From: a virus
Direction: 5' to 3' (one strand)
Virus record (IMG/VR): IMGVR_UViG_3300046804_003463
Coordinates: 1-64,000 of that record
DNA length: 64,000 nt
Positions 28,941-50,488 of the stretch are shown piece by piece; the first letter of the stretch is position 1; the number at the start of each line of letters is the position of its first letter. The notes beneath the pieces were generated by a model. That model did not search any database. It saw only the letters and a list, made by a program, of their open reading frames with translations, and was not told where the DNA came from. The position numbers and the translations under genes were made by a program.

Positions 28941-29369
28941 TCAATTAAAAAACTTTGCCAGGTATTCGAATTTTACGTTAGAAATAATCCATGCGACAAC
29001 CACAACGCCGCCGGCGACCATCCACTTCCACTGCATCAAAGACTTTAGGTCATCGTCTTCTTTTTGATTGTGTTCGGTGATATGGTCACGCAACGATTTG
29101 ATTTCATCCATGATTCTACGTTCTGTCAGTTCAATCTTATCGGATAGATTTCTGTCTGTGGTAGTAATCCTCGAATGAAGTTCCTTAATATCGCTAACGG
29201 TATCTTCTTTGCGTTTGTCCATGTCTTTGTAAATTTGGTTGACCACCGATGAATTGTTATCTGAGAGTTTCTCGATAACACGATCCATCTTTTCACAAAG
29301 GTCAACAAGTGTGTTGACTTTCTCTTTGAGAACGCCAACTTCCACTTTGAGTGCTACATCTCCGTCCAT
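28941..29369 (-). CDS. Coiled-coil protein with C-terminal TM
   Basis: Heptads, WKWMVAGGVVVV anchor. Confidence 0.75.
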   Translation of the reverse strand: MDGDVALKVEVGVLKEKVNTLVDLCEKMDRVIEKLSDNNSSVVNQIYKDMDKRKEDTVSDIKELHSRITTTDRNLSDKIELTERRIMDEIKSLRDHITEHNQKEDDDLKSLMQWKWMVAGGVVVVAWIISNVKFEYLAKFFN

Positions 29370-29570: not shown

Positions 29571-29794
29571 TTTTCTTCCTTCGAAACAAATTTTTCGGTT
29601 GCGGTAAATCCCAATCCACCAAGCACAACATACATTATAACATCAAGTGTCTGAGGATTCAATTTCTTTTCAAAAAACAATTCGGCAATAAAACCAGTAG
29701 CAAGCAAAAGGAACGCCAAAAAGGTAATGAACCTTTTGCTGCTAGGCTGTTGCTCACCTTCAGCGGTGAGCATTTGTATCATAAATTTTTTCAC
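29567..29794 (-). CDS. Holin-like two-TM protein
   Basis: SSKRF, two TM segments, in lysis cluster. Confidence 0.55.
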   Translation of the reverse strand: MKKFMIQMLTAEGEQQPSSKRFITFLAFLLLATGFIAELFFEKKLNPQTLDVIMYVVLGGLGFTATEKFVSKEEK

Positions 29795-30279
29795 AGTTCT
29801 GGATGTGGTGGCTGTGCTGGTGCTTCTTTACCACCAAAACCTGTTGCCACTGTTGGTGCAAATGATGCAAATGCATCAAATCCAGCAGACATACCCATTG
29901 GTGCTGCAAACCCAGCCATGCTCGTTGGTGAACTAAAGCCCACTGAACTTACTGGAGCTGGTGGTGGAGATGGTGGAGGTGGCTTGTTTGCTGCTTCAAG
30001 TGCCTTTGCTCTCAACTCTTTATCATCACCTGCTAACATAATACCCGACAATGTACCAGTCAAGAATGTAGCAATTGGAATAATCAATTCAAAAAACTTA
30101 TTGTCAACAGGACTCATGCCGTTCATTGGCTGAGTAACAAAAATCAAACTATACAGAACAACAAAAACAATACCAAATAGTGTTAGACCTAAAACGATAC
30201 CAATGAAAAACTTCAGTCGTGCGTTTAGTTCTTCAGTGGTGTATCTTTCTCCTGACCATAATTCGTTAATCATTTGCAT
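29791..30279 (-). CDS. Two-TM membrane protein with Pro-rich tail
   Basis: Hydrophobic helices; in lysis cluster. Confidence 0.7.
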   Translation of the reverse strand: MQMINELWSGERYTTEELNARLKFFIGIVLGLTLFGIVFVVLYSLIFVTQPMNGMSPVDNKFFELIIPIATFLTGTLSGIMLAGDDKELRAKALEAANKPPPPSPPPAPVSSVGFSSPTSMAGFAAPMGMSAGFDAFASFAPTVATGFGGKEAPAQPPHPEL

Positions 30280-31387: not shown

Positions 31388-31821
31388 GGCTTCTTGGCTG
31401 CTTCGTTCAAAATACTTACTACGTTGGGATCAAGTTCACACTTCGCATCAATAACTTTTTCCACTTCCTTAATCTTTTGGACAATAATCTCTCGTTTTTC
31501 AACGACTCTCTTTGTTCTCTCTCTGATTTGCGTTTCAATAACAACATTTGTCTGCTGTGATTTCGCTTCTGCATCTTTCACTTTCTCCTCTAGTTCAGCC
31601 ACTCGTTGACGCCATTCTTGCTCTACGCTATAGCCTCCTTTCCAATATATACCGACACAGAGCAGTGCTATGGAAACATATTTGATTATGTTCGCATAGT
31701 TGCTAATGAATAATAGTCTGCTACCTATGAAACCTAAGATGGTGCCTATGACACCACAAACTAAAACTGTATTAATAATGAATAGAAGAAAACCAGAGGG
31801 CAAAAAACTAAGAAGCCACAT
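31384..31821 (-). CDS. Inner-membrane spanin (Rz-like)
   Basis: N-terminal TMs, periplasmic coiled coil. Confidence 0.7.
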   Translation of the reverse strand: MWLLSFLPSGFLLFIINTVLVCGVIGTILGFIGSRLLFISNYANIIKYVSIALLCVGIYWKGGYSVEQEWRQRVAELEEKVKDAEAKSQQTNVVIETQIRERTKRVVEKREIIVQKIKEVEKVIDAKCELDPNVVSILNEAAKKP

Positions 31822-32041
31822 TTGATTTTCTCTTTAGGAATGAAATGAATGTCGCAGTCTTGCGTTTCTTGACACCAGGTTCACCCTGTGGTCCTACACC
31901 AAGTCCGGCAATAGCACCACCGCCGACTGCGTTTGCTGGTGCGCCCATAGCACCAGCATCTTCTTTGAGTGGTTTACAGACTTTATCGGTGCTACACCAA
32001 TAATAACCTGCACCACATTCTTTTTTGAATTCGTTAGACAT
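31808..32041 (-). CDS. Small late protein (MSNEFKKECGAG..)
   Basis: Start right after ATAAATA late promoter at 32047-32053. Confidence 0.65.
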   Translation of the reverse strand: MSNEFKKECGAGYYWCSTDKVCKPLKEDAGAMGAPANAVGGGAIAGLGVGPQGEPGVKKRKTATFISFLKRKSNVAS

Positions 32042-32057
32042 AGTTTTATTTATGTTA

Positions 32058-32774
32058 TTAGTACCCTGTTCCACCAACATTATAGCCAGTATATACAGTC
32101 CAATTTGTGCCTGTGCTATCTCCAACCATAACATAACTTTGATTGGCAGTTACACCACGATTTGATGGTCCCAAATCACCGCCTGTGAGTTTTGCTGTAG
32201 AACTGTACAAACCGGAAATGACACCAACATTATTATTACCTCTTGCTTGTACACCAACCAACAATTCAATCCAAGGACTGCCACCAGTCAGACTTGGGTT
32301 AAAAAATGTTAATTCATACACCATGTTGGGGCTGCCCGGTGTGCCAGTTGTTGATGATGTTCCTTCCCAACGCAACCTCTTATAGTCTGTACCCGAAGTA
32401 AAACTTGAAACTCTTTGCCATGAATTATCTGCGGCGGCAAAAAATATTTTATTGAGAGCAGGTGAAGATGCACTTAGACCATTGAATTGATTTGAGCCTG
32501 AACCGAATGTTACATAGTAATTTGAGTTTGGAAAAAAACTAGTATAACCAGTATTATTGTATGTCCATGTAAATGGTAAAGTCACATTTGTATTTGCATC
32601 ATCACCAGTTGATGAAATGATAGATGTCCAACCAGATGCGGGAAATGGACTTTGTGCGCCAGCACCCAGAACGGGCGCCTTTGTGCCAGTGTTTAATGTA
32701 TAAACACCACTAACTGGTATCTGTGAATCAACGTAGATTCCACCAGTGATTGTGATGCCAGGTCCGATTATCAT
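32058..32774 (-). CDS. Putative virion structural protein
   Basis: G/S/T/N-rich, MIIGPGITITGGI start. Confidence 0.65.
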   Translation of the reverse strand: MIIGPGITITGGIYVDSQIPVSGVYTLNTGTKAPVLGAGAQSPFPASGWTSIISSTGDDANTNVTLPFTWTYNNTGYTSFFPNSNYYVTFGSGSNQFNGLSASSPALNKIFFAAADNSWQRVSSFTSGTDYKRLRWEGTSSTTGTPGSPNMVYELTFFNPSLTGGSPWIELLVGVQARGNNNVGVISGLYSSTAKLTGGDLGPSNRGVTANQSYVMVGDSTGTNWTVYTGYNVGGTGY

Positions 32775-33163
32775 TTTAGATTTCTGAGAACTTCTGCGAC
32801 ATTCATATCAATCGGTATTTCTGATGATATGATGTCTGTGCCGTTGATGCCACGAACTCTTTCGGGCATGAGATTCAAAAATATCAAATATGTTTTGAGA
32901 ATACTATAATCACTTTTGTTGGTGTGATAAAACATTATTCTCGTCGATACTTCAGGACCAAAAATATTGTACAAAACAACAATGTGATTGAGTATCAGTC
33001 GCTCACGCATTTCACCATGTTTAGAGTAACGTCTGAATAATCGTTTGAGATAATTTAATCGCTTCATGTCCTCAGTGAACTCACTCATGATGCAATTAGG
33101 CCTATCATAAGCCTTTGCAGCATATAACATAATATTTTCTTCAGTCAGATTCTCAAACGACAT
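32771..33163 (-). CDS. Conserved T4-like hypothetical protein
   Basis: Y..P.C..EF.ED..R..Y.KRL..RLILNH..L.N.FG. Confidence 0.8.
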   Translation of the reverse strand: MSFENLTEENIMLYAAKAYDRPNCIMSEFTEDMKRLNYLKRLFRRYSKHGEMRERLILNHIVVLYNIFGPEVSTRIMFYHTNKSDYSILKTYLIFLNLMPERVRGINGTDIISSEIPIDMNVAEVLRNLK

Positions 33164-33200: not shown

Positions 33201-33779
33201 TCAAGAGTCAGGTGCAATAGCGTCATCAGATGCGTCACCAGTCATTGAACCCATTGCTACTAGAGTTTCAAATGTGGTGCGACCATTGCGTCCACCCATT
33301 GTAAAGGTGAATGCAGTGTTTCCAAATGTGTTCGCTGTTGGTGTACCAGTATACAGACCAGCATTTGAAACTGAGATGCTAGAAATTCTACCAGTAGCAG
33401 CAGTCGTTACGCTGACTTGTGCAGAGGTGTTATTTGTACCACCACCAGACAATACCAGTGTATATGTGCAGGCCGATGCTGCTGGACCTACAGCGCCAGT
33501 GTTTGCTGTAACTGACACAACAGGACCAGAACCTTTTGTACGAGCTACCCAACCAGCATGTGTTGGTTGACCGTCAGTGATAAGTGGCTCTTCTGTCGTA
33601 TCTATACCGAATACACCAAACTCTACATTTGTGCGGGTTGCACTCATGTATGTGTTACCAAATACTGATGAAGTTTCCGAATTAGCTATACTTTCACCAG
33701 TGGTTGATACATCGTAGCCTGTTAGACCCGAAAAGTTTGGAGCATTGTTAGATGCGTCTACATTTCCCCAAAGTGGCAT
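33201..33779 (-). CDS. Putative virion structural protein
   Basis: MPLWG..HAGWV..GR...ETLVAM; late promoter at 33808-33814. Confidence 0.75.
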   Translation of the reverse strand: MPLWGNVDASNNAPNFSGLTGYDVSTTGESIANSETSSVFGNTYMSATRTNVEFGVFGIDTTEEPLITDGQPTHAGWVARTKGSGPVVSVTANTGAVGPAASACTYTLVLSGGGTNNTSAQVSVTTAATGRISSISVSNAGLYTGTPTANTFGNTAFTFTMGGRNGRTTFETLVAMGSMTGDASDDAIAPDS

Positions 33780-33810: not shown

Positions 33811-35301
33811 TTATGTTTTCTGCATATCGCTAGACAATTCGGGGTCTTTTTGAAACTTGTCCGATGCCTCTTCTTGTTCTTGCTTTTTTCCTTTTGCAGC
33901 ATCTCTTACGATTTGTGCTTTACGGGATAGAGTTCTTGCTGCTGCACTTGGCTCGTCAACGGCTTCACTTACAGTCTTCCAGCCACCCCCCTTTGACTTG
34001 TACCACTTTGATGCCCAACCGTTGGCATATGCAGAAGGATACACATCAAACTTTTGTTTTGCTAGTGCTTTTGCTTTAGACCACAATGCAGGATTGGTCG
34101 GAGCATTCTTCTCTTCAAGATACTCAATCTCTTCGTTGACATGACCATACTTCTTTTTGTACCAATCAGGCATGCCATTCTTTTTTCTCCAATGTCTTAC
34201 AGTCGCAGAATCATTTGCTTGGTCACGATACTTGTTTTCTGCTGTTGTGTTATGACTCTTCATTGCTTCTGCTGCTTCATGTGCATCTTTGGCAATGTGA
34301 ACTAACGCTTCATTAGATTTCTTATGATACTCATGACCTTCTAGTGGATGACGCTGTGATGGACGGCCTTCTGTCAGTTCAACTTCTTCTTTGTTGTATT
34401 TCTTTTTCAAATACTTGTCAACCTTGCGTTCATATTCACCTTTTGGTTTCTTTGCAACAGGAGTACCATGTGGAGAAGGAACATATCGCTTAACTTCTTC
34501 TTTCATACCCTTAGGCTTGATACCTTTTTTCTTCATGTTGATAGCAATTGCTGCCTGTTGTGCAGGATTTGCTGCTTCGCTCAATTCACCACGCAGATAG
34601 TTTGCCGCTGTAGAAATATAATCTTCAGCCAATGTAATCTTTGATTGTACCCATTCAGGAAGATTTGTGTTATCATCCATCATGTCAATCAAATCTTGTG
34701 CATTGAACATTAACGAACGAAGTTGTGACATTGCCATATCGCCTTCGTAATCGTATTCACGTGGGTCTTTTGCTTCTTTCATATGTTCCTCGTTTACTCT
34801 AGGTGATGCTTGAGTGAAAGATTGAAATGGTTTTTTTGAAGGTCCAGAAACATGTCTGCCTTTTTTGAACAATTCATATGAAATTCTTCCAGTTTGAATT
34901 TGTTCATTCACTTCTGTCTCTTCAGAAACTCTTGATGCTTTCATGATACCACGAATCAATGGTGCTTTGAGTTGTTTATGTCTTGGCACAGAAATGTTTT
35001 CTTTTGACTTAGGATGGCCGTATACATCATGACCACCAGAAGTTCTCTTCAGTGACCAACCAGATTTTTTCAGATGAGCATGTACATCACGTGTCTTCAT
35101 GCTTGACTCTGGCATCTCATCAAGTTGTTCAACTGATTCAACTTTATATTTCTTTTTGATTTCGGCCTGCTTTGCAAGTCTTTCTCTGTCATCAGAAATG
35201 CTGTAAGAATGACCTAGTTCTTTGTAATAGTCGGGATGTGGTAGTCCCGACTTCTTACGCAGAGCCATTTGTCGTTGATGTAGTTTATCGGCGACTGACA
35301 T
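33811..35301 (-). CDS. Multi-domain putative head-packaged polyprotein containing a HicA-like domain
   Basis: Acidic linkers ESVEQLDE, EETEVNE, EEVELTE, EEIEYLEE separating small domains. Confidence 0.75.
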   Translation of the reverse strand: MSVADKLHQRQMALRKKSGLPHPDYYKELGHSYSISDDRERLAKQAEIKKKYKVESVEQLDEMPESSMKTRDVHAHLKKSGWSLKRTSGGHDVYGHPKSKENISVPRHKQLKAPLIRGIMKASRVSEETEVNEQIQTGRISYELFKKGRHVSGPSKKPFQSFTQASPRVNEEHMKEAKDPREYDYEGDMAMSQLRSLMFNAQDLIDMMDDNTNLPEWVQSKITLAEDYISTAANYLRGELSEAANPAQQAAIAINMKKKGIKPKGMKEEVKRYVPSPHGTPVAKKPKGEYERKVDKYLKKKYNKEEVELTEGRPSQRHPLEGHEYHKKSNEALVHIAKDAHEAAEAMKSHNTTAENKYRDQANDSATVRHWRKKNGMPDWYKKKYGHVNEEIEYLEEKNAPTNPALWSKAKALAKQKFDVYPSAYANGWASKWYKSKGGGWKTVSEAVDEPSAAARTLSRKAQIVRDAAKGKKQEQEEASDKFQKDPELSSDMQKT

Positions 35302-35303
35302 GA

Positions 35304-36326
35304 CTAGTCTTTCTTAGCCATTTTGGTTGCGGTGGCATACATTACCGACTTTGCACGTTCACCGTAACGCTGTTTGAAACCAGAAAGTTTTTTCTTCATA
35401 CCCATTACATAATCTTCTTTCTTCTTTGCTTCACCTTTTGTCAGTTCACGCTCATCAATTTGCTCAACTGATTCTGGCATTGTCTTTACACCGACAGTTT
35501 TACCAGCAGCAATTTTTGGTTGTTTCTTCTTAGCTTCAAAACTTGCTTTTTGGTCTTCATATTCTTTTGTCCACTCGTCATTTGTTGGCTCTTCAACGAT
35601 GGTTTCAACAAAGCCATTTACCTTGTCGGCATCAAGCACTTCAATTTTTGTACCGTCAATGTCCATCTCTTCAGTTTCAATTGGTGCTAGAACTTTCAGA
35701 CCATGCTCATTGTACAGTTCAAGCATTTCTGTAAATGATGCTGACTCATTGACACGTGTTGAACGCTTGTAGTTTTGACGGGCACCATAACCACCTTTTT
35801 TCTTTGGTGTATCATCTTCATCATCGTCATCTTTGTAGTCACGCTTATGTACAAGACCTGTTGCTGTCTTTGTGACTGAACCTGTTGCTGTCTTACCAGC
35901 ATCCATGCGCTTCTTAGCATCTGCTACAGTTGGAAATGCTTCGTTCAGTTGCTCTTGTTCTGATGCTTCAACTTCTTCATTCTTTTTACCATAGTAATCA
36001 TCTTTGTACATGCGTGATGTTGCCTTACGCAGACCTTTTGTGCGGTTTTTTGTCTTGTCTGCAATTGCTTTGCTTACATATGAACCAAGTGCTTTTCTAC
36101 CTGCTGGTGTATCACCAACTTCGTCTAATTGTTCAACTTCTTCTTTCTTCAGCACACCACGACCAACCAACACATCTTTGTGTGTAATCTTATCTTTTGG
36201 ATGTGCTAGTGCTGCCAAAGATTTCTCTTTGTCGGTTTTTGGTGTTGAACCATGACTTGTTTCTGCCATGATTTTTGCTGCTGCTTCTGCGACACCTTTC
36301 AGTGCCTTGTCATGAAAAATTGACAT
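35304..36326 (-). CDS. Putative internal head protein/polyprotein
   Basis: EEVEQLDE, EQEQLNE, ESVEQIDE linkers between basic modules. Confidence 0.7.
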   Translation of the reverse strand: MSIFHDKALKGVAEAAAKIMAETSHGSTPKTDKEKSLAALAHPKDKITHKDVLVGRGVLKKEEVEQLDEVGDTPAGRKALGSYVSKAIADKTKNRTKGLRKATSRMYKDDYYGKKNEEVEASEQEQLNEAFPTVADAKKRMDAGKTATGSVTKTATGLVHKRDYKDDDDEDDTPKKKGGYGARQNYKRSTRVNESASFTEMLELYNEHGLKVLAPIETEEMDIDGTKIEVLDADKVNGFVETIVEEPTNDEWTKEYEDQKASFEAKKKQPKIAAGKTVGVKTMPESVEQIDERELTKGEAKKKEDYVMGMKKKLSGFKQRYGERAKSVMYATATKMAKKD

Positions 36327-36350
36327 TGTAGTTCTCCTGATTTAGTTTTG

Positions 36351-37661
36351 TTATCTTGTAATCTCTTCCCAATCCATTGATGCATAGATGTCTGAACCGT
36401 TTAGGGTAGCAGAAGCACATAATGTTAATTCGTATGGAGTGTTGGTGAAACTGTCTCTTTCTAATTGAAATTTGAATAATGCTTCTTTAAGAATATCAAC
36501 TGGTGCTGCACTAATTGTTGCACCAGTAAAACCTGATGCTAATACACGACCGCCAGTCATTGTACCGCCATCAATTTTGTATTCAACAGAAGAATTATCT
36601 CCCGCACTTACCCAAGTTCCACCTCCAGTGGTGTTGGCGCCTGCTCTTACTTGCCAATTATAAACTGAGTTATTCGTAATACCCAATATTGATAGTGCAG
36701 TAAGAATTACGATTGCATCTAAACGATTTGCTTTTAATCTTAGTGAAATAACTGGATAATATGTTCCAGGCGTTGGTAAATCAATAGGTGATCCAATTGC
36801 TGTTTGAATGGCTTGTTGAGAGCCATACAATTCATACCCACCTTCAGAAATGACTGTCGAACATATTTGCTTCATTGTTGAGTTACTTGCGGTAACTCCA
36901 GTATTCTTGATTTCATATCTTAATGGCAAAGAGGCCGTTGTCATGTAAGGTGTTAAATTTTTATTATCATTATGAAATATATGTGCGATTGTCATTTTAC
37001 CATCAACAACAAAACCACAACGAACATCACCAACACCTAACCATTCAACGTCCATCCAAAGAATGTTTGTTTTACTTACGTCAAGTCCACCAGTGTGTTC
37101 TGCACCACCACTTTGTGATGAATAACCCGTACCGTCAAACTTATCTACATTCCAATCTGATTGTGCAACTCTTGTTTCTGTAACTGTGCTTGATGTGTTT
37201 GTTCTCAATACGAAATAATTTGTTGTACCATCATTCTCAAGATAAATGCCATTACTTTGACCAAAATATCCTACTCTTTGACGAACATTTGCTTTTGGTT
37301 CGTTCATAGCAAATGTTGACATAATCAACAAAGATTTACCTGGTTGATAAGACATAACTTTTGTCGTTTCTCTGGCAACTTCAGCATTTGCGGTTGTGCC
37401 AACAGTCATATTAATTGTACTTTGGTTTTCAACAAAAGTGTATGAACTATTACTTGCTGTGTTTGATGTTACCCACAGTCCATTATCAGAAAAACGATGT
37501 GTGCTTTCAAACAAAGTAACAGGATTTACGATACGCAAACGGCCAAACGCATCTGTCAAAGTGCCAGACGGTGAAAGACGATCAGACATCATATTCACTT
37601 CATAACGAGTGAATACTTGTCCTGAATCTATCTTATGTAAGTCCGTTCTAAATTGTGCCAT
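36351..37661 (-). CDS. Putative virion structural protein
   Basis: DAFGRLR, YQPGKS, WLGVG.VR.G, WEE C-terminus. Confidence 0.75.
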   Translation of the reverse strand: MAQFRTDLHKIDSGQVFTRYEVNMMSDRLSPSGTLTDAFGRLRIVNPVTLFESTHRFSDNGLWVTSNTASNSSYTFVENQSTINMTVGTTANAEVARETTKVMSYQPGKSLLIMSTFAMNEPKANVRQRVGYFGQSNGIYLENDGTTNYFVLRTNTSSTVTETRVAQSDWNVDKFDGTGYSSQSGGAEHTGGLDVSKTNILWMDVEWLGVGDVRCGFVVDGKMTIAHIFHNDNKNLTPYMTTASLPLRYEIKNTGVTASNSTMKQICSTVISEGGYELYGSQQAIQTAIGSPIDLPTPGTYYPVISLRLKANRLDAIVILTALSILGITNNSVYNWQVRAGANTTGGGTWVSAGDNSSVEYKIDGGTMTGGRVLASGFTGATISAAPVDILKEALFKFQLERDSFTNTPYELTLCASATLNGSDIYASMDWEEITR

Positions 37662-37664
37662 AAA

Positions 37665-37926
37665 TTAGCAGTTCCACTTTCTTATTTTGGCTTTAACTCC
37701 GGATATTTTTTATGCATTTCTTCCCTTGATAGTTCATGCATATCTTTCCACATTTTTGCTTCTTTTTTAGTTTTTGTGGTTCTAATATGACGGCCATTTT
37801 CATCATGCACATTATATTCAACATCGGCTGTTGTTCTGCCACGATAACTTTCTTTCTTAGTTATTGTTGCTTTCTTTTCTTCAACTATGAAAGACTTAAA
37901 TGTTTTCATTAGCAATTCCACTTTCT
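37665..37926. repeat. 18-bp direct repeat flanking a small cargo gene
   Basis: ttagcagttccactttct (37665-37682) vs ttagcaattccactttct (37909-37926); both encode RKWNC*. Confidence 0.8.
37682..37909 (-). CDS. Small internal-protein-like ORF with capsid-targeting sequence
   Basis: MKTFKSFIVEE, similar to T4 CTS MKTYQEFIAE. Confidence 0.7.
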   Translation of the reverse strand: MKTFKSFIVEEKKATITKKESYRGRTTADVEYNVHDENGRHIRTTKTKKEAKMWKDMHELSREEMHKKYPELKPK

Positions 37927-38625
37927 CAGTGCTTTATTAATACGTGAATCTGGATCACGTGCTGTCTTTGCTGATGTCAGTCTACGCTTCATGCCGCCCA
38001 TTCTTGCACAGAATGATTTGCGACGATTTGCTGCTTTAGAACCAGGTTTCAGTTTGCTTGGCTTTGTTGTCACAGCCATTGACAGTTTTGAACCTGGATT
38101 CTCACGACGATATGATTCAATACCTTTACGATTCAAACCACCAGACTCAGACTTACCTTCTTTACGCTGCCATGCTGCAACTTCTTCTAACTGTTCTAAT
38201 TGTTCATCTGTCAGCGGACCATCGTCTGCTTCATAGTTCTCTTTTTTCACTTTCATCATCTTTGGCTTTGTGAACACAGGATTATCCGCACCACCAGCAT
38301 CACCTTCTCTCTCCTCTACAAATTTTTTCAGCTTTTTATAATAATCTGATTTTTCACCGATATGCTTCAATGCAATTTTTCTAGCAACATGTTTTTCATC
38401 AGTATGTTCCATTTCAACTTTAGTGCCATGTGCTACCAAATCTTGAATATCTGAAATAGACATTTTATATTTTTTTGCTAAATCATCTTCAGAAGGAACT
38501 GATTTATCAAGTTCAACTTCTTCTTTTACACATGAGCCTGGTGAATATGGTTTTTTACCAGGTACTGGTCTATGACCTGGCCAACAACGACCAGCTTCAT
38601 CTAAGAATGCGCTAAACGATTTCAT
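37909..38625 (-). CDS. CTS-bearing multi-domain protein
   Basis: MKSFSAFLDE; linkers EEVELD, EQLEQLEE; VEMEHT module and AWQRKEGK..RKWNC module. Confidence 0.75.
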   Translation of the reverse strand: MKSFSAFLDEAGRCWPGHRPVPGKKPYSPGSCVKEEVELDKSVPSEDDLAKKYKMSISDIQDLVAHGTKVEMEHTDEKHVARKIALKHIGEKSDYYKKLKKFVEEREGDAGGADNPVFTKPKMMKVKKENYEADDGPLTDEQLEQLEEVAAWQRKEGKSESGGLNRKGIESYRRENPGSKLSMAVTTKPSKLKPGSKAANRRKSFCARMGGMKRRLTSAKTARDPDSRINKALRKWNC

Positions 38626-41147
38626 ATGTAATTTCTCTTTTTAAATGTTGTAAGTGAGATACCTTTTTTCTTCAGTTCGTCTTCTTTTTGATCACCAATT
38701 GATGCTGTAGTCGTGTCGCCTGTAAGTTCATTGATATTTTTAGGCACAACTTGTGTTGCTTTACCTTTTTTGCTTAATTTTTCACCCATGTCTCTAGCAG
38801 GAGATTCACCAGCACCCGCCATTGAAATGCCTGGCTCTATACCTTTGTCTATTGACTCTTGAATTTTTTTCTGCCAATTTTCTTTGATGGTTGAGATGGT
38901 GATGGTTCTTCTATCTTCACTTCTTCCTTCGGCAACGGGCTTGTCAAGGGCTGGTCGTTCTTTTCTTCCAACACTGGCTCTAACTTTTCCAAGTTCTTTG
39001 GCTGTTGGGGTGAAACTATTTTGTCCATAAACTGCTTCAATCGCAGAATTATCAGGTGAATGTACTTCATACAAATCCTCTTTTAGTTTTACAACATATC
39101 TCTTGCCTACTTTTGCTACTGTGCCACCTTTTTGGTGTGCTTCTTTTGCTGCTGAACCACGAATAAAAAACAATCGTGTCTTGCCATTCTTGTCTGTCAA
39201 TAGTTTTTGTTTCTTCGTTTCTTCACTAATCTTGCCTTTGCCAAAATTTGATACATTGATTGGATCACCTTTACGTTCTGGGTTAGGATCGTGTTTTCTT
39301 TTTGCACGAACAGCAGCAGCACGTTCTTTCTTTGACAACGCTGCACGTTTTTCATTTGACATGCATTTTGGTTTTGGTTCACCTGGCTCTCTTGCACAAG
39401 GACCAATTGCTTCACCCTTACTATTGATGCGTTTCCAACCACCTTCGGGATCAGTTTTGCTGAACCATTTACGCAGGTCTTCTTTAATCATGCCTCTTCC
39501 TAGTGTAAGTAGATTAAATGCACCAGGATCAGACATCGTATTCACTTCCTCTTCTTCTACCATGTCTTCTTCATCTGACTTGAGCAAACGAAGTGTGCGT
39601 GTGACTTCTTCTACAGTATCTCCTGTTACTGATACTGTGACTGCTTCATTCATCTTAGCCATTTTGCTTTGATGTGTTTCAACAGTCTTTGCAATCTTTT
39701 CTACTGGCACTAGACTACCATGCACTGAACGATGTGTGACTTTACCATCTTTACCATAACGACCAAAGCCATAATACTCAAGACCCATTGTGTTCATATC
39801 ATCATGTGTGCCGGCATCTTTATGTGGTTTCGTGTCGGTACGAATTGGTGCTGTATCTTTTTTACCTAACTCTGTAGCAATCCAACCTTTTGCTGAATCA
39901 TTCTTTGGTGGTTTACCAACAAACTTTTGTATGTTCTTGAAAATGCCGTCTAGTTCTTTTGTCTTTGCTTCTACAACTTCTGGTGGTGCAGAACGCAAAT
40001 CTTCTGAGTTATCAAACTCAACATAATTGTCACGGAATAGTTTACCAAACATTGGTCGTGCCGCTTGTACAGAATCCCATTTTTCTTTACGAATGTCTTC
40101 TGGTACTGTACGACCACCACGTTGACCACGTTCAATATTTCTCTCTTTTGATACTTCGTCGGCTGTGTTGACCATAATCATGGATGTTTCATATCCTAAC
40201 TTCTCAAGCATGTCTTTGATTTTGGCATACTTTTCTGGGTCATCACCTGTACCATTGATGATAAGACCATTACGACCATGAAGTGCAAGACGTTGACGCA
40301 ACTCTGTAACATTCTTTGCACGTTTGCGAACTGCATTTCTTTGCGCTTCTTCATTGTCTGGCATTTTCTTATCAAGACCTTCTTTGTCCATCAGATACTC
40401 AAGTGCTTTGTCTGAATTGATTTCAGTCAGACCATGACCATCAAGTGTCTTACTCAACACATAATCTTTACCTGAGCCAGGACCACCACCAAGAAACACT
40501 GCTTTGAAAATACCTTTGTCGTGAACACCTTCACGAATGATTTCTTCGTGCAATCTCATACCTTTACGTACATCATTGAACATTTGTTTGACATGTGCAT
40601 GAGACATTGATGATGGTGCGCCCTTCTTGAATGAATCAAGGTCACCACTCTTTGCATGTTCACGCATCTTTGAAGCAGAAATGCCAGTTACACCTTCAGC
40701 ATCAGGATCACGTTCACCCGCTGAGTGTACTTTGATTGATTTGAAATTGAAACGGGCACCTTCATGTGTGCCATTATACTTGTGAAGCAATCTGTGATAT
40801 TCTTCTGTACGATCAGAGCCACCAACCATGTGTAGATGAGTTACACCTTTCTTATGCAATGCTTCTGCATGGTCAAAGAATGTTGGCTTGTCTTTAGATG
40901 CTGCTGTGAAGTTCGTGCCAGGAAATGCACGTTTAGCATGTTTGACTTTTTGATCTGCTGTAAGGGGATTTTTCTTAGAGTCCTGTGAATGTGACAAGAC
41001 GATGTGATGAGAACCGCCGACAGAATCGGCAATATCTTTGACTTTGTTGACTAGTTTTTCGTGACCGTTTGTGATAGGATTCATGCGACCAAATGCTAGG
41101 ACGGCATGTTTCTCTTTCTGTTCACGTAGAAAATCTCTAAATTTCAT
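38622..41147 (-). CDS. CTS-bearing cytidylyltransferase-like + P-loop kinase (zeta/AAA_33-like) multi-domain protein
   Basis: MKFRDFLRE; FGRMNPITNGH and SASKMR (HIGH-type NTase); GGPGSGK Walker A. Confidence 0.8.
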   Translation of the reverse strand: MKFRDFLREQKEKHAVLAFGRMNPITNGHEKLVNKVKDIADSVGGSHHIVLSHSQDSKKNPLTADQKVKHAKRAFPGTNFTAASKDKPTFFDHAEALHKKGVTHLHMVGGSDRTEEYHRLLHKYNGTHEGARFNFKSIKVHSAGERDPDAEGVTGISASKMREHAKSGDLDSFKKGAPSSMSHAHVKQMFNDVRKGMRLHEEIIREGVHDKGIFKAVFLGGGPGSGKDYVLSKTLDGHGLTEINSDKALEYLMDKEGLDKKMPDNEEAQRNAVRKRAKNVTELRQRLALHGRNGLIINGTGDDPEKYAKIKDMLEKLGYETSMIMVNTADEVSKERNIERGQRGGRTVPEDIRKEKWDSVQAARPMFGKLFRDNYVEFDNSEDLRSAPPEVVEAKTKELDGIFKNIQKFVGKPPKNDSAKGWIATELGKKDTAPIRTDTKPHKDAGTHDDMNTMGLEYYGFGRYGKDGKVTHRSVHGSLVPVEKIAKTVETHQSKMAKMNEAVTVSVTGDTVEEVTRTLRLLKSDEEDMVEEEEVNTMSDPGAFNLLTLGRGMIKEDLRKWFSKTDPEGGWKRINSKGEAIGPCAREPGEPKPKCMSNEKRAALSKKERAAAVRAKRKHDPNPERKGDPINVSNFGKGKISEETKKQKLLTDKNGKTRLFFIRGSAAKEAHQKGGTVAKVGKRYVVKLKEDLYEVHSPDNSAIEAVYGQNSFTPTAKELGKVRASVGRKERPALDKPVAEGRSEDRRTITISTIKENWQKKIQESIDKGIEPGISMAGAGESPARDMGEKLSKKGKATQVVPKNINELTGDTTTASIGDQKEDELKKKGISLTTFKKRNYI

Positions 41148-41178: not shown

Positions 41179-41192
41179 TATTTAGTATTTAG
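41179..41192 (-). promoter_or_regulatory. Tandem late-type promoter motifs
   Basis: CTAAATA twice upstream of the head-cargo operon. Confidence 0.6.
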
Positions 41193-47594: not shown

Positions 47595-47780
47595 TTATTT
47601 TATGTCTGTTGTTGCCCAGTTCGTTGTGTATTTTTTGTATTGTTGTTGACTCTGACCAGGCGTGTCATCAAGATATTTAGCAGTGAGTTCTGGTCTGCCC
47701 CACTCACCACCACCTGCTTTAGACACAAACTCTTGTCTGCTATCTTTATTTGCCTTGAGATAATCTTTGAATGTTTTCAT
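47595..47780 (-). CDS. Small CTS-like protein
   Basis: MKTFKDYLK; GEWG..Y..DTPGQ. Confidence 0.65.
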
Positions 47781-48232: not shown

Positions 48233-48517
48233 TTATCCTCTTGTGAGTGTCAGTATTTTTTGCATTTGTTTCTCAATGATAGGACCACGATTAGGCCAAT
48301 GAATGTATGGCTGACTTGCGGTCTTGTATAGATTCGTCAGAAATGGCATGATAATCTTTTCCACTTGTTGAAGTCTTGCTTTATACTCTTCAACGGTTTC
48401 ATCTTTCTCAGCAATGACTGCTTGGTACTCAACTTCATCTACTGTGCTGAAGCCAAAATCATCATCTGCATACTCTGCTAAAATTTTATTGATATCGTAT
48501 TCCATTACTTGTCCCAT
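48233..48517 (-). CDS. Conserved hypothetical protein
   Basis: DDFGFS..I.P.L.NL..YI.WPNR. Confidence 0.75.
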   Translation of the reverse strand: MGQVMEYDINKILAEYADDDFGFSTVDEVEYQAVIAEKDETVEEYKARLQQVEKIIMPFLTNLYKTASQPYIHWPNRGPIIEKQMQKILTLTRG

Positions 48518-49728
48518 GCTTTCTGTGCGTTAAAGTTTTGTCTGCTGAACTCTAGTCTGTCTACTAGTTTCAATGCTTTACCAACATGATCTACAGCAAC
48601 AAAACCCTCTGGTGCTGTGATACGAAAACCATCATCAGTGCGAACAAATGTACCAATGCTCTTGATAGTTTCCAACTTACGAATAATCATCAACTTGGCA
48701 TCAACAATCAAATTCATCAAGTCAAATATTGATTTTAGTTGAATGGCATTTGAACGATAGAAACGCATCACTTCATTCTTTTCTTTGATACGTTTTTGTT
48801 TTGTATCTTCTTTCTTTGCTGCAAGAATTTCTTTGTTCAATTTTGCTTCAACATAATTCATCAATTCTTGTGTATGAATTCTTGTGTCTGCAATCTTTTT
48901 ACCTTCACGAACTTTTGTATTGTTGAATGTTTTGATTTGTGTAAGAAAAACATCCGATGCAGCAATACGATTCAATGTCAATGCGGGTATTGAATTGAAA
49001 ACTCTGCCTGCATTTGAAAGAATAGATGTAATTGCTGCCGTTTCTTCTTCAGTAAATGTAACTGAACCTGACGCATCAGTAAACGAAGCATCACGAAACC
49101 AAACATCTTTTGTTGGCTTCAAATGTCCAATGTCAATGTTGTATGATGCTTTCATTGTCTCTAATGTTTTACCAGAGTATGATGTATGAAACACAACACC
49201 AATCTGTGCAGCCATCATTGTCTGTGCTAACTTTGATTTTGTTGGCACAGCATATACGATTGTGTTTGGTTGAAATATAATGTATTCTTCACCATCAATA
49301 GTTTCTTTTTTGATGTCGCCCTTACTGAACATCATATCACCTTGCAGTACACCTTTGATACCCAATTTAGGTAAGAATGCAAGTGCAAGTTTTAGTTTCT
49401 GATTCAGTCCACCACCAGGATGATTTGCATCAATATCTTCATCAGTATAATTCAATTTTGCATTTTTTGCAAACACTGATTTAGTGCCAACGAAAAAATT
49501 ACCGTTCTCTGGATTTGTACCAGCAAAGATAGCAGGTGCGCCATCCCATTTTGTGGTTACATTTATTTTTGAACCTGTATGACCGGCAAGCATATTACGC
49601 AATGAACGAAGAAAATCTATTGCTTCACGTGCGCCTGATACACCACCGTTTAGTACGTTGTCTTCAAGATGCTCAAGATGAACATTCTTGCCTTCTTTAC
49701 TTTCTTTGAGATATTCCATGAATTTCAT
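48505..49728 (-). CDS. Conserved T4-like CTS-bearing protein (ligase/NTase-like KWDG motif)
   Basis: MKFMEYLKE; HLEHLED, KWDGAP, QGD, EGFV, KLVDR. Confidence 0.75.
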   Translation of the reverse strand: MKFMEYLKESKEGKNVHLEHLEDNVLNGGVSGAREAIDFLRSLRNMLAGHTGSKINVTTKWDGAPAIFAGTNPENGNFFVGTKSVFAKNAKLNYTDEDIDANHPGGGLNQKLKLALAFLPKLGIKGVLQGDMMFSKGDIKKETIDGEEYIIFQPNTIVYAVPTKSKLAQTMMAAQIGVVFHTSYSGKTLETMKASYNIDIGHLKPTKDVWFRDASFTDASGSVTFTEEETAAITSILSNAGRVFNSIPALTLNRIAASDVFLTQIKTFNNTKVREGKKIADTRIHTQELMNYVEAKLNKEILAAKKEDTKQKRIKEKNEVMRFYRSNAIQLKSIFDLMNLIVDAKLMIIRKLETIKSIGTFVRTDDGFRITAPEGFVAVDHVGKALKLVDRLEFSRQNFNAQKAWDK

Positions 49729-50480: not shown

Positions 50481-50488
50481 TATTTATA
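50481..50488 (-). promoter_or_regulatory. T4 late promoter
   Basis: Exact TATAAATA. Confidence 0.75.

Follow-up and report, generated by a model that had tools for sequence, protein, structure and literature searches.

Leader-tagged, modular proteins as probable virion cargo of an uncultured T4-like aquatic phage

Mullaney and Black reportedly described in 1996 that the internal proteins of phage T4 carry a capsid targeting sequence and undergo processing by gp21, and Iyer et al. are said to have described polyvalent proteins of phages and conjugative elements in 2017. The T4 targeting sequence is MKTYQEFIAE (PMC8442874). Residues 4 and 7 of this leader serve targeting and residues 8 and 10 processing, and even between T-even phages the internal proteins are hypervariable (PMC9026906). 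Here, we analysed a window of 64,000 nt (the whole stretch of DNA under study) from a 77-kb contig that is 45% complete. The source of the genes is an uncultured T4-like water phage, and the leader-tagged modular proteins encoded in this window are probably virion cargo that is delivered with the DNA.

The run of interest (33811-41147) comprises six genes, all on the minus strand, as are all genes, modules and joints described below. The sole late-promoter-like motif preceding it is a pair of CTAAATA elements (41179-41192, minus strand), a weak match to the consensus located 32-45 nt upstream of the first gene, which encodes a protein of 841 aa. The downstream genes adjoin or overlap in an operon-like manner. 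For the canonical T4 late promoter TATAAATA the window shows no enrichment, with one match (50481-50488) against 3.45 expected. The original prediction that these genes are driven by late promoters is only partly borne out, by a single CTAAATA pair and the operon-like arrangement. Five of the six genes are cargo candidates. The remaining one encodes a 436-aa conserved virion structural protein (36351-37661; phrog_1645, E 1.7e-128) that carries neither leader nor linkers and, though inside the operon, is not a polyprotein; in cyanomyoviruses the phrog_1645 gene sits between terS and terL. A Pfam scan found no MuF, portal or peptidase domain in the proteins of the run (75-841 aa).

Peptides resembling the capsid targeting sequence had been predicted at the N-termini of several products, and each was found there: MKFRDFLRE starts the 841-aa ORF (38622-41147), MKSFSAFLDE the 238-aa ORF (37909-38625) and MKTFKSFIVEE the 75-aa ORF (37682-37909), while MKTFKDYLK (at 47780) and MKFMEYLKE (at 49728) start a 61-aa (47595-47780) and a 407-aa protein (48505-49728) outside the run. 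As a property of the run, however, the leader is restricted to three of the six genes, and is missing from the structural protein as well as from the 340-aa and 496-aa candidates, which hold most of the linkers. The leaders agree with that of T4 at the four functional positions (4, 7, 8 and 10). The 238-aa and 75-aa proteins have an aromatic or hydrophobic residue at positions 4 and 7, a hydrophobic one at position 8 and Glu at position 10, and the 841-aa and 407-aa proteins show the same pattern when a one-residue deletion is allowed. This 9-residue form was represented by 17 distinct leaders in related loci. The 61-aa protein has no Glu10, and the 340-aa and 496-aa proteins do not show the pattern. 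Among 80 related IMG/VR loci, the pattern starts at 89 of 2760 first ATGs versus 6 of 10075 internal ATGs, a 54-fold enrichment. In the AlphaFold2 model of the 841-aa protein the leader (residues 1-9) has a pLDDT below 50. A signal peptide was also considered and was ruled out by the shortness of the leader, its lack of a hydrophobic core and its acidic end residue.

The shared N-terminus might instead reflect a constraint on translation start or expression, or a recombination cassette, on cytoplasmic late or accessory proteins that are not packaged at all and reach virion preparations as contaminants. The locus indeed lies in a region of replication and auxiliary genes, outside the head gene cluster; on the T4 map, the genes for internal proteins are scattered outside that cluster too. 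Against such a constraint, the leader is conserved as amino acids, including the unconstrained positions 3, 5 and 6, although its codons vary, and its conserved positions are those defined by T4 genetics. Proteomic data from cultured relatives bear on the same point. The virion proteome of S-CREM2 comprises 52 detected proteins of about 221, and all four leader-bearing genes of this phage (ORFs 6, 13, 14 and 154) are among them, which would happen by chance with a probability of about 0.003. Homologues of the first, NMNAT-like module of the 841-aa protein, in the same gene neighbourhood, were found in purified virions, including those of S-CREM2 and S-SCSM1 (PMC10665884, PMC9602691). The S-SCSM1 annotation lists ORFs 89-93, 95 and 97, which form part of the syntenic cluster, as virion proteins, and does not flag one leader-bearing gene, ORF30, as such. 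The S-CREM2 authors raised contamination themselves and warn of abundant co-purifying proteins. Detection in virions would also fit a position on the particle other than the head interior. The predicted presence in virions is thus borne out by mass spectrometry for homologous or leader-bearing proteins of these two relatives, and we consider it very improbable that the proteins are unpackaged.

The 841-aa protein is assigned by Pfam (CTP_transf_like, Zeta_toxin, AAA_33), PHROG (cytidyltransferase families), AlphaFold2 and Foldseek to a leader, a nucleotidyltransferase, a kinase, further modules and a basic tail. Its leader (41121-41147) ends in L-R-E and is followed by an NMNAT/NadD-like module (residues 10-206, 40530-41120; Pfam, PHROG and fold), which itself ends at the joint I-R-E206. 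The next module, a P-loop kinase of the adenylate-kinase or polynucleotide-kinase type (residues 207 to about 430, 39858-40529; Pfam and Foldseek), is a gene of its own in Pelagibacter phage HTVC008M, and the joint ahead of it reads (L/I/V/M)-x-E in 19 of 30 contexts. Further on, a basic two-cysteine module (residues 557-642, 39222-39479; phrog_727, phrog_12753) follows I-K-E556. It recurs in other architectures (S-BM3 T4-GC_119 and S-CREM2 ORF160), with a site at 25 of 32 junctions. AlphaFold2 folded the NMNAT-like and kinase domains confidently, and confidence was low only at the leader, the joint at 200-210 and two short loops. The low pTM values (0.50 and 0.31) suggest that the modelled modules have no fixed mutual arrangement. 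By Foldseek, the model matches NadR (E 1.4e-6 to 1e-4), with similar scores for ATP sulfurylase/APS kinase, adenylate kinases and polynucleotide kinase. Searches of PDB sequences with the 841-, 407- and 496-aa proteins gave weak adenylate-kinase matches or none.

In the 238-aa protein, the leader precedes a 25-aa two-cysteine mini-module, DUF5661, an acidic disordered stretch, the linker EQLEQLEE and DUF6321 (residues 149-238, 37912-38181; Pfam E 6.9e-17). DUF6321 is the commonest module of the system, found in at least 580 IMG/VR stretches and at least 525 phage records, and a site precedes it at 56 of 62 junctions. A look-up in the ESM Atlas returned DUF6321 clusters only, and Foldseek gave no significant match for the 238-aa model, DUF5661 and DUF6321 included. 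The 75-aa gene, whose start overlaps the stop codon of the gene for the 238-aa protein, encodes the leader (MKTFKSFIVE) and a 65-aa basic module. Outside the run, the 407-aa protein belongs to DUF6267 (Pfam E 6.3e-115), the homologues of which begin with a leader in related loci; it also contains a K-x-D-G-like motif, which made us suspect, though not propose, a ligase-like nucleotidyltransferase. Likewise outside, a Gly-rich module with a basic tail (31811-31960) follows L-K-E. Elsewhere this module occurs as a leader-tagged protein of 59-64 aa and as the virion protein ORF97 of S-SCSM1.

The two leaderless candidates are multi-module proteins. The 340-aa protein (35304-36326) contains the joints EEVEQLDE (36120-36143), L-N-E129 and ESVEQIDE (35451-35474), and the junction before its C-terminal module has a site in 22 of 22 cases. 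The 496-aa protein (33811-35301) contains ESVEQLDE (35116-35139), EEVELTE (34369-34389) and EEIEYLEE (34111-34134), so that all acidic linkers named in the original prediction are accounted for in these two and the 238-aa protein. Between L-D-E62 and V-S-E127 of the 496-aa protein lies a HicA-type RNase module (residues 63-127, 34921-35115; Pfam HicA_toxin, E 9.5e-10). It retains the Gly and the catalytic His, its G-G-H aligning to G22-S23-H24 of B. pseudomallei HicA (PDB 4C26), where mutagenesis showed G22 and H24 to be required for toxicity (PMC3969222). This HicA unit is an internal module, and no match to HicB (PF15919) was found on the contig. A 49-aa basic module (residues 398-446, 33964-34110) follows L-E-E397, with (L/I)-x-E at 31 of 31 junction contexts. 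In locus L014 it precedes an acidic helical module, the reverse of the order in the 496-aa protein.

We infer from the sequence that the proteins are cleaved at these internal joints. With modules cut by coordinates and their starts set from the window's own candidate sites, the end of an (L/I/V/M)-x-E motif lay no more than two residues from where the module begins in 260 of 311 distinct junctions (84%, chance 10.4%). The junction contexts are related by descent, so that P-values are inflated. The rate dropped to 0-2% when the position was shifted 8-20 residues into the module. In addition, the L-x-E of the leader and that of the linker take up equivalent places ahead of one and the same module, and in related loci modules are inserted, swapped and reordered precisely at the joints. 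An invariant module order had been named as evidence against a polyprotein; compared among homologues, the order varies.

Peptidase_S77, the prohead protease family, was not found on this 77-kb, 45%-complete contig. It is encoded in four of five related contigs, among them G004, which is syntenic, and G001, which is complete, as well as in S-SCSM1 and S-CREM2. Relatives show L-N-E and L-T-E as counterparts of the T4 gp23 cut site FLTE (Glu65). In four podophages that lack Peptidase_S77, these modules are encoded by separate genes that have neither leader nor linker. Leader and linkers thus co-vary with the protease among these phages.

The T4 internal proteins themselves are cut only once, beside the targeting sequence (PMC8442874), which leaves room for proteins that are packaged but cut at most at the leader. 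The acidic stretches would then be flexible spacers or helix caps in virion proteins that stay whole and have several domains, much like polyvalent proteins that are not cleaved, and might just keep the basic modules soluble. A mere spacer would hardly need, at 84% of junctions, a hydrophobic P3 and a Glu at P1 immediately before the module, with a sharp fall-off on both sides, nor would it be interchangeable in position with the end at which the leader is cleaved and missing along with the protease. We therefore regard a single cut as unlikely.

Another possibility is that the products are loaded and cut but serve a structural or counter-ion role, neutralising or organising DNA or acting as scaffold, with some fragments expelled and nothing functional delivered. 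The modules had been described as mostly basic, which holds for the majority of the predicted ones, although several are acidic. Many are strongly basic (net charge +19 for DUF6321 and +5 to +10 for others), and podophages encode the same tiny basic proteins beside capsid and scaffold genes. The T4 core proteins gp22, gp67 and gp68 are moreover cut to fragments that leave the head (PMC5694885). Apparently intact enzymes, namely HicA with its catalytic His and the confidently folded NMNAT-like and kinase domains, do not fit such a role, and the leader-bearing set of S-CREM2 includes a SAM hydrolase and a kinase, enzymes without obvious use inside a capsid. A purely structural function thus appears rather improbable.

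We favour, with somewhat better than even confidence, a T4 internal-protein system in expanded, modular form, in which leader-loaded and protease-jointed cargo leaves with the DNA. Against it stand the lack of a leader in the 340-aa and 496-aa proteins, the protease missing from this partial contig and the unflagged ORF30 of S-SCSM1. Late in infection, the operon from 41147 to 33811 would be expressed together with at least two genes further upstream. The leader of 9-10 residues (M-K-T/S-F-K-x-F/Y-L/I/V-x-E) would bind the scaffolding core, and the shell would assemble around the products. The Peptidase_S77 prohead protease, a gp21 homologue, would then remove the leader after its Glu, and the same protease would most likely cut the acidic joints (E-E-V/E-E-x-L/I-D/E-E) before nearly every module. 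These cuts would free separate enzymes and small, mostly basic peptides that remain in the head and exit with the DNA. The predicted cargo includes the NMNAT-like nucleotidyltransferase, the P-loop kinase, the HicA RNase, DUF5661 and DUF6321, among others. Binding of the leader to the core, the location inside the head, ejection and a host role for each module are steps that we infer. Because each module would bring its own cut site, modules could be gained, lost or moved by recombination without harm to their neighbours.

More tentatively, and as a possibility that we hold to be somewhat less than even, aquatic T4-like phages in general may have such plug-and-play cargo in common, across hundreds of genomes both cultured and uncultured. 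A leader or joints would turn any small protein or enzyme into head cargo, and the joints would be both processing sites and safe recombination points. The payload delivered with the DNA would consist of enzymes latent until cut (HicA without antitoxin) and counter-defence functions (the NAD-salvage-like NMNAT and kinase, or the SAM hydrolase of S-CREM2). If true, this would account for the metabolic and regulatory enzymes that recur in cyanophage virion proteomes and are suspected contaminants there. T4 capsid targeting, instead of concerning a few coliphage proteins, would become a delivery format that is widespread and evolvable among the phages of oceans and lakes. Leader and joints would also give a simple sequence rule predicting the injected proteins of uncultured phages, and these proteins would be among the first to consider for early counter-defence and for host takeover. 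The T4 protein-packaging toolbox could be broadened with natural leaders and joints.

Among the papers searched, on capsid targeting in cyanophages, capsid-targeted polyproteins and DUF6321, none describes this system, and internal proteins, gp21 and targeting go unmentioned in two genomic studies of T4-like cyanophages (PMC3037559, PMC2984593). The virion NMNAT-like, cytidylyltransferase and kinase proteins of the cyanomyoviruses S-CBWM1, S-SZBM1, S-SCSM1 and S-CREM2 include relatives of the module that comes first in the 841-aa protein; the papers on them (PMC10665884, PMC9602691) mention no leader or joints, leave the packaging unexplained and deem contamination possible. A NadR-like bifunctional enzyme (NMNAT plus ribosylnicotinamide kinase) is one candidate for the nucleotidyltransferase and P-loop kinase of the 841-aa protein, alongside the other enzymes that score similarly by Foldseek. 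HicAB systems share the HicA fold with Gly and catalytic His, whereas an adjacent HicB gene was not found on the contig. Polyvalent proteins, as far as the account in PMC9503650 goes, share the idea of virion-embedded fusions of several effector domains that are injected with the DNA; there they are very large, usually have a MuF, portal or peptidase domain and are predicted mainly from fusions to head proteins such as MuF or portal, whereas we propose a T4-type leader and protease joints with mostly tiny modules. The T4 core proteins gp22, gp67 and gp68 and the ejection or inner-body proteins of phiKZ, 201phi2-1 and SPN3US are likewise head-internal and cut at several x-x-Glu sites (PMC5694885). 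Those cuts, however, remove propeptides or destroy scaffold rather than setting free folded, independent modules known from other architectures, and the jumbo-phage motif is A/S/G-x-Glu in contrast to L/I-x-Glu here.

The closest likeness is to IPI, IPII, IPIII and Alt of T4, which likewise have a leader of 9-10 residues with the same key positions and an (L/I)-x-Glu end (PMC9026906, PMC3012670). Also alike are the basic, fast-evolving mature parts, the late and scattered genes, the Peptidase_S77 lineage and the expected delivery with the DNA. The mature parts have no Pfam or PHROG match to these four proteins, as expected from the hypervariability of internal proteins. The T4 proteins, however, are single modules with one cut. 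In the present system as many as about eight unrelated modules, every one with its own acidic joint, stand behind a single leader or behind none, and they are shuffled among genes and phages, as known from sequence.

The window, the first 64 kb of a 77-kb IMG/VR contig with a completeness rating of 45%, covers replication and auxiliary genes of a T4-like (Kyanoviridae-like) myophage. Among these are genes for DNA polymerase, UvsX, gp41 helicase, gp61 primase, a thymidylate synthase that we read as thyX-type, NrdA and endolysin. The closest DNA matches are cyanomyoviruses and the Pelagibacter myophage HTVC008M. All six genes of the putative cargo locus (33811-41147) lie on the minus strand, adjoin or overlap each other and encode, in order, proteins of 841, 238, 75, 436, 340 and 496 aa. 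The 436-aa gene encodes a conserved virion structural protein (phrog_1645, E 1.7e-128), whose cyanomyovirus counterpart is located between terS and terL. A late-promoter-like CTAAATA pair was found in one copy, ahead of the first (841-aa) gene, and the case for a late promoter is thin.

Several further reading frames were found around the locus. The 192-aa protein (33201-33779, minus strand) is similar to S-SCSM1 ORF95, annotated as tail fibre and virion protein. Its gene is followed by that of a DUF7207 protein (32771-33163, minus strand), and the pair is kept beside cargo genes in S-WAM2, S-CREM2, S-SCSM1 and the related contig G001. For a 108-aa ORF (31808-32134, minus strand), the probable start is an internal Met, residue 32. 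Its product combines a mini-module rich in Cys, an L-K-E joint and a basic-tailed Gly-rich module, and the ORF overlaps with the end of the 238-aa gene that precedes it (32058-32774). Two ORFs between primase and endolysin (28941-29369 and 29791-30279, minus strand) had no more than weak PHROG matches, and these were to families without a known function. Inside the 841-aa gene, a 73-aa alternative-frame ORF (38849-39070, minus strand) is open too in three related loci (L008:7520-7741, L007:7568-7789 and L014:7574-7780). An overlapping gene is one possible explanation, and a side effect of the Lys/Glu-rich coding sequence another.

The leader peptides and linkers quoted in the original prediction were all found at their positions. 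Within the locus, the leader starts three of the six genes and is missing from those of 436, 340 and 496 aa, although the 340-aa and 496-aa proteins are both rich in joints. Two genes farther upstream, encoding 407 aa (DUF6267) and 61 aa, also start with it. The 407-aa protein (48505-49728, minus strand) contains, near residue 60, a K-W-D-G stretch that is also seen in homologues and is similar to motif I of nucleotidyltransferases of the ligase or capping type.

The T4 capsid targeting sequence is MKTYQEFIAE (PMC8442874), in which residues 4 and 7 act in targeting and residues 8 and 10 in processing, as shown by T4 genetics (PMC9026906). MKTFKSFIVE and MKSFSAFLDE agree with it at all four key positions, and MKFRDFLRE and MKFMEYLKE fit if one residue is deleted. 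In 80 related IMG/VR loci and this contig, a loose leader pattern was matched at 89 of 2760 first ATGs, compared to 6 of 10075 internal ATGs. In a set of 77 distinct leader DNAs, conservation extended to positions that the pattern had left free (T/S at 3, K at 5, Q/E at 6), and the codons were variable throughout; the leader is therefore under selection as a peptide. Position 4 was Phe in 55 of 60. Leader-bearing families in the related loci include NMNAT-like plus kinase fusions, DUF6267, HAD-like phosphatases, small acidic proteins, Gly-rich mini-proteins and many DUF6321 architectures.

To locate the joints relative to the modules, 15 modules, each beginning directly after a candidate Glu, were taken from the window proteins by coordinates and searched against every open frame in the related loci, which gave 311 distinct junction contexts. 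In 260 of these (84%; 10.4% by chance), an (L/I/V/M)-x-Glu ended at most two residues from the predicted module start, and the strict (L/I)-x-Glu was found there in 212 (5.9% by chance). When the test point was moved 8-20 residues into the module, the (L/I/V/M)-x-Glu rate fell to 0-2%; 8, 12 and 16 residues upstream it was 25%, 13% and 6%. The joint logo reads E-E-V/E-E-Q/E/Y-L/I-D/E-E. Where a module is the first in its protein, the leader L-x-E adjoins it at the place taken by the linker L-x-E when the same module is internal. As the 311 contexts are related by descent and not independent, P-values are not to be taken literally, and the weight of the case for these putative cleavage joints rests on the effect size and the sharp peak.

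An invariant module order would have spoken against the original prediction; instead, modules are replaced, lost and reordered among relatives. In L008, the closest relative (97% identity across the enzyme part), the counterpart of the 496-aa protein carries a different module between two joints, and that of the 238-aa protein lacks DUF5661, the break falling precisely at a joint. In the related locus L014 the order is reversed, a 49-aa basic module preceding the acidic helical one. The single 337-aa protein T4-GC_119 of S-BM3 joins modules spread here over three proteins. DUF6321 stands behind zero to several other modules, and also alone with only a leader.

No Peptidase_S77 was found on this 77-kb contig (45% complete). 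Four of five related contigs encode the family, among them the syntenic G004 and G001 (complete, 160.7 kb), as do S-SCSM1 and S-CREM2. T4 gp23 is cut after F-L-T-E65, releasing a propeptide of 65 residues (PMC5694885). The gp23 proteins of G001 and S-CREM2 have L-N-E and L-T-E at an equivalent distance ahead of the conserved core, and their gp21 homologues retain an I-x-E near the N-terminus, comparable to LIE-9 of T4. From the gp23 and gp21 motifs together we infer a specificity of the prohead protease that is probably conserved in these relatives.

DUF6321 occurs in 525 phage records, mostly of T4-like cyanophages and also of podophages. In a small sample of four complete podophage genomes (Lederberg, P-SCSP1d, HTVC023P and HTVC168P), it is a stand-alone small gene in all four, as is a second shared module in P-SCSP1d and HTVC168P. 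These genes adjoin capsid or scaffold genes in three of the four genomes. They have ordinary N-termini with no leader or acidic joint, and none of the four genomes encodes Peptidase_S77. In this small sample, leader and joints would therefore belong to the T4-type assembly system and not to the module folds. In T7-like podophages of Prochlorococcus and Pelagibacter, two or three genes for tiny and highly basic proteins, DUF6321 among them, lie amid capsid, scaffold and tail-tube genes (L103:1459-1877 and L105:1236-1737); the products may be internal virion proteins of Autographiviridae that have gone unrecognised.

Virion proteomics of four cyanomyoviruses has detected NMNAT-like or cytidylyltransferase proteins (PMC10665884, PMC9602691). 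A leader is mentioned in neither paper, and one cautions about possible contamination. Our whole-genome leader scan of S-CREM2 matched ORF6 (SAM hydrolase), ORF13 and ORF154 (cytidylyltransferase); a fourth, ORF14, an APH/ChoK-like kinase whose gene starts with GTG, was identified by eye. All four leader-bearing proteins are within the 52 detected in virions, from about 221 features (hypergeometric probability about 0.003). In S-SCSM1, ORFs 89-93, 95 and 97 of the syntenic cluster upstream of primase are annotated as virion proteins, and ORF91 (NMNAT) starts with a leader. Another gene with a leader, ORF30, is located next to terL and flanked by two virion proteins, and is not itself flagged as a virion protein. 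Detection in virions is not equivalent to a location inside the head. A second cluster of 'non-structural' proteins detected in virions consists of ORFs 6 and 12-15 of S-CREM2 (OR473000; L118-L126, 3837-13331); of these, ORF6, ORF13 and ORF14 have the leader at their N-terminus. The assigned start of ORF12, a gene annotated as encoding a Cas9-like nuclease, may be wrong, as residues 18-25 read R-F-A-S-F-M-A-E and resemble the leader.

Residues 1-430 of the 841-aa protein were modelled with AlphaFold2 from 16 input sequences, which gave two confident domains (mean pLDDT 79.9). The pLDDT was below 50 only at residues 1-9 (the leader), at 200-210 (a joint with I-R-E206) and in two short loops. 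Foldseek matched both domains to NadR, which the enzyme pair may resemble in domain order, and to ATP sulfurylase/APS kinase; single-domain matches were adenylate kinases, polynucleotide kinase and NaMN adenylyltransferases. In the model of the 238-aa protein (pLDDT 71.5, pTM 0.31), several segments folded separately without a fixed mutual arrangement, and the stretch 110-138 was disordered. The HicA module of the 496-aa protein retains, by sequence alignment, the Gly and His needed for toxicity, and no HicB was found on the contig. The small modules are mainly strongly basic, with some acidic exceptions; DNA charge neutralisation and a role as delivered effectors are both possible.

In the literature searched, we found no aquatic T4-like phage described as having both a T4-type leader and, between shuffled modules, standard protease joints. 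The mechanism proposed for the cargo locus is the same as that of T4 IPI-III and Alt. Multi-site cutting, here read from motifs, is reminiscent of the T4 core proteins and of jumbo-phage ejection proteins, and the idea of multi-domain injected cargo is shared with the polyvalent proteins (PMC9503650).
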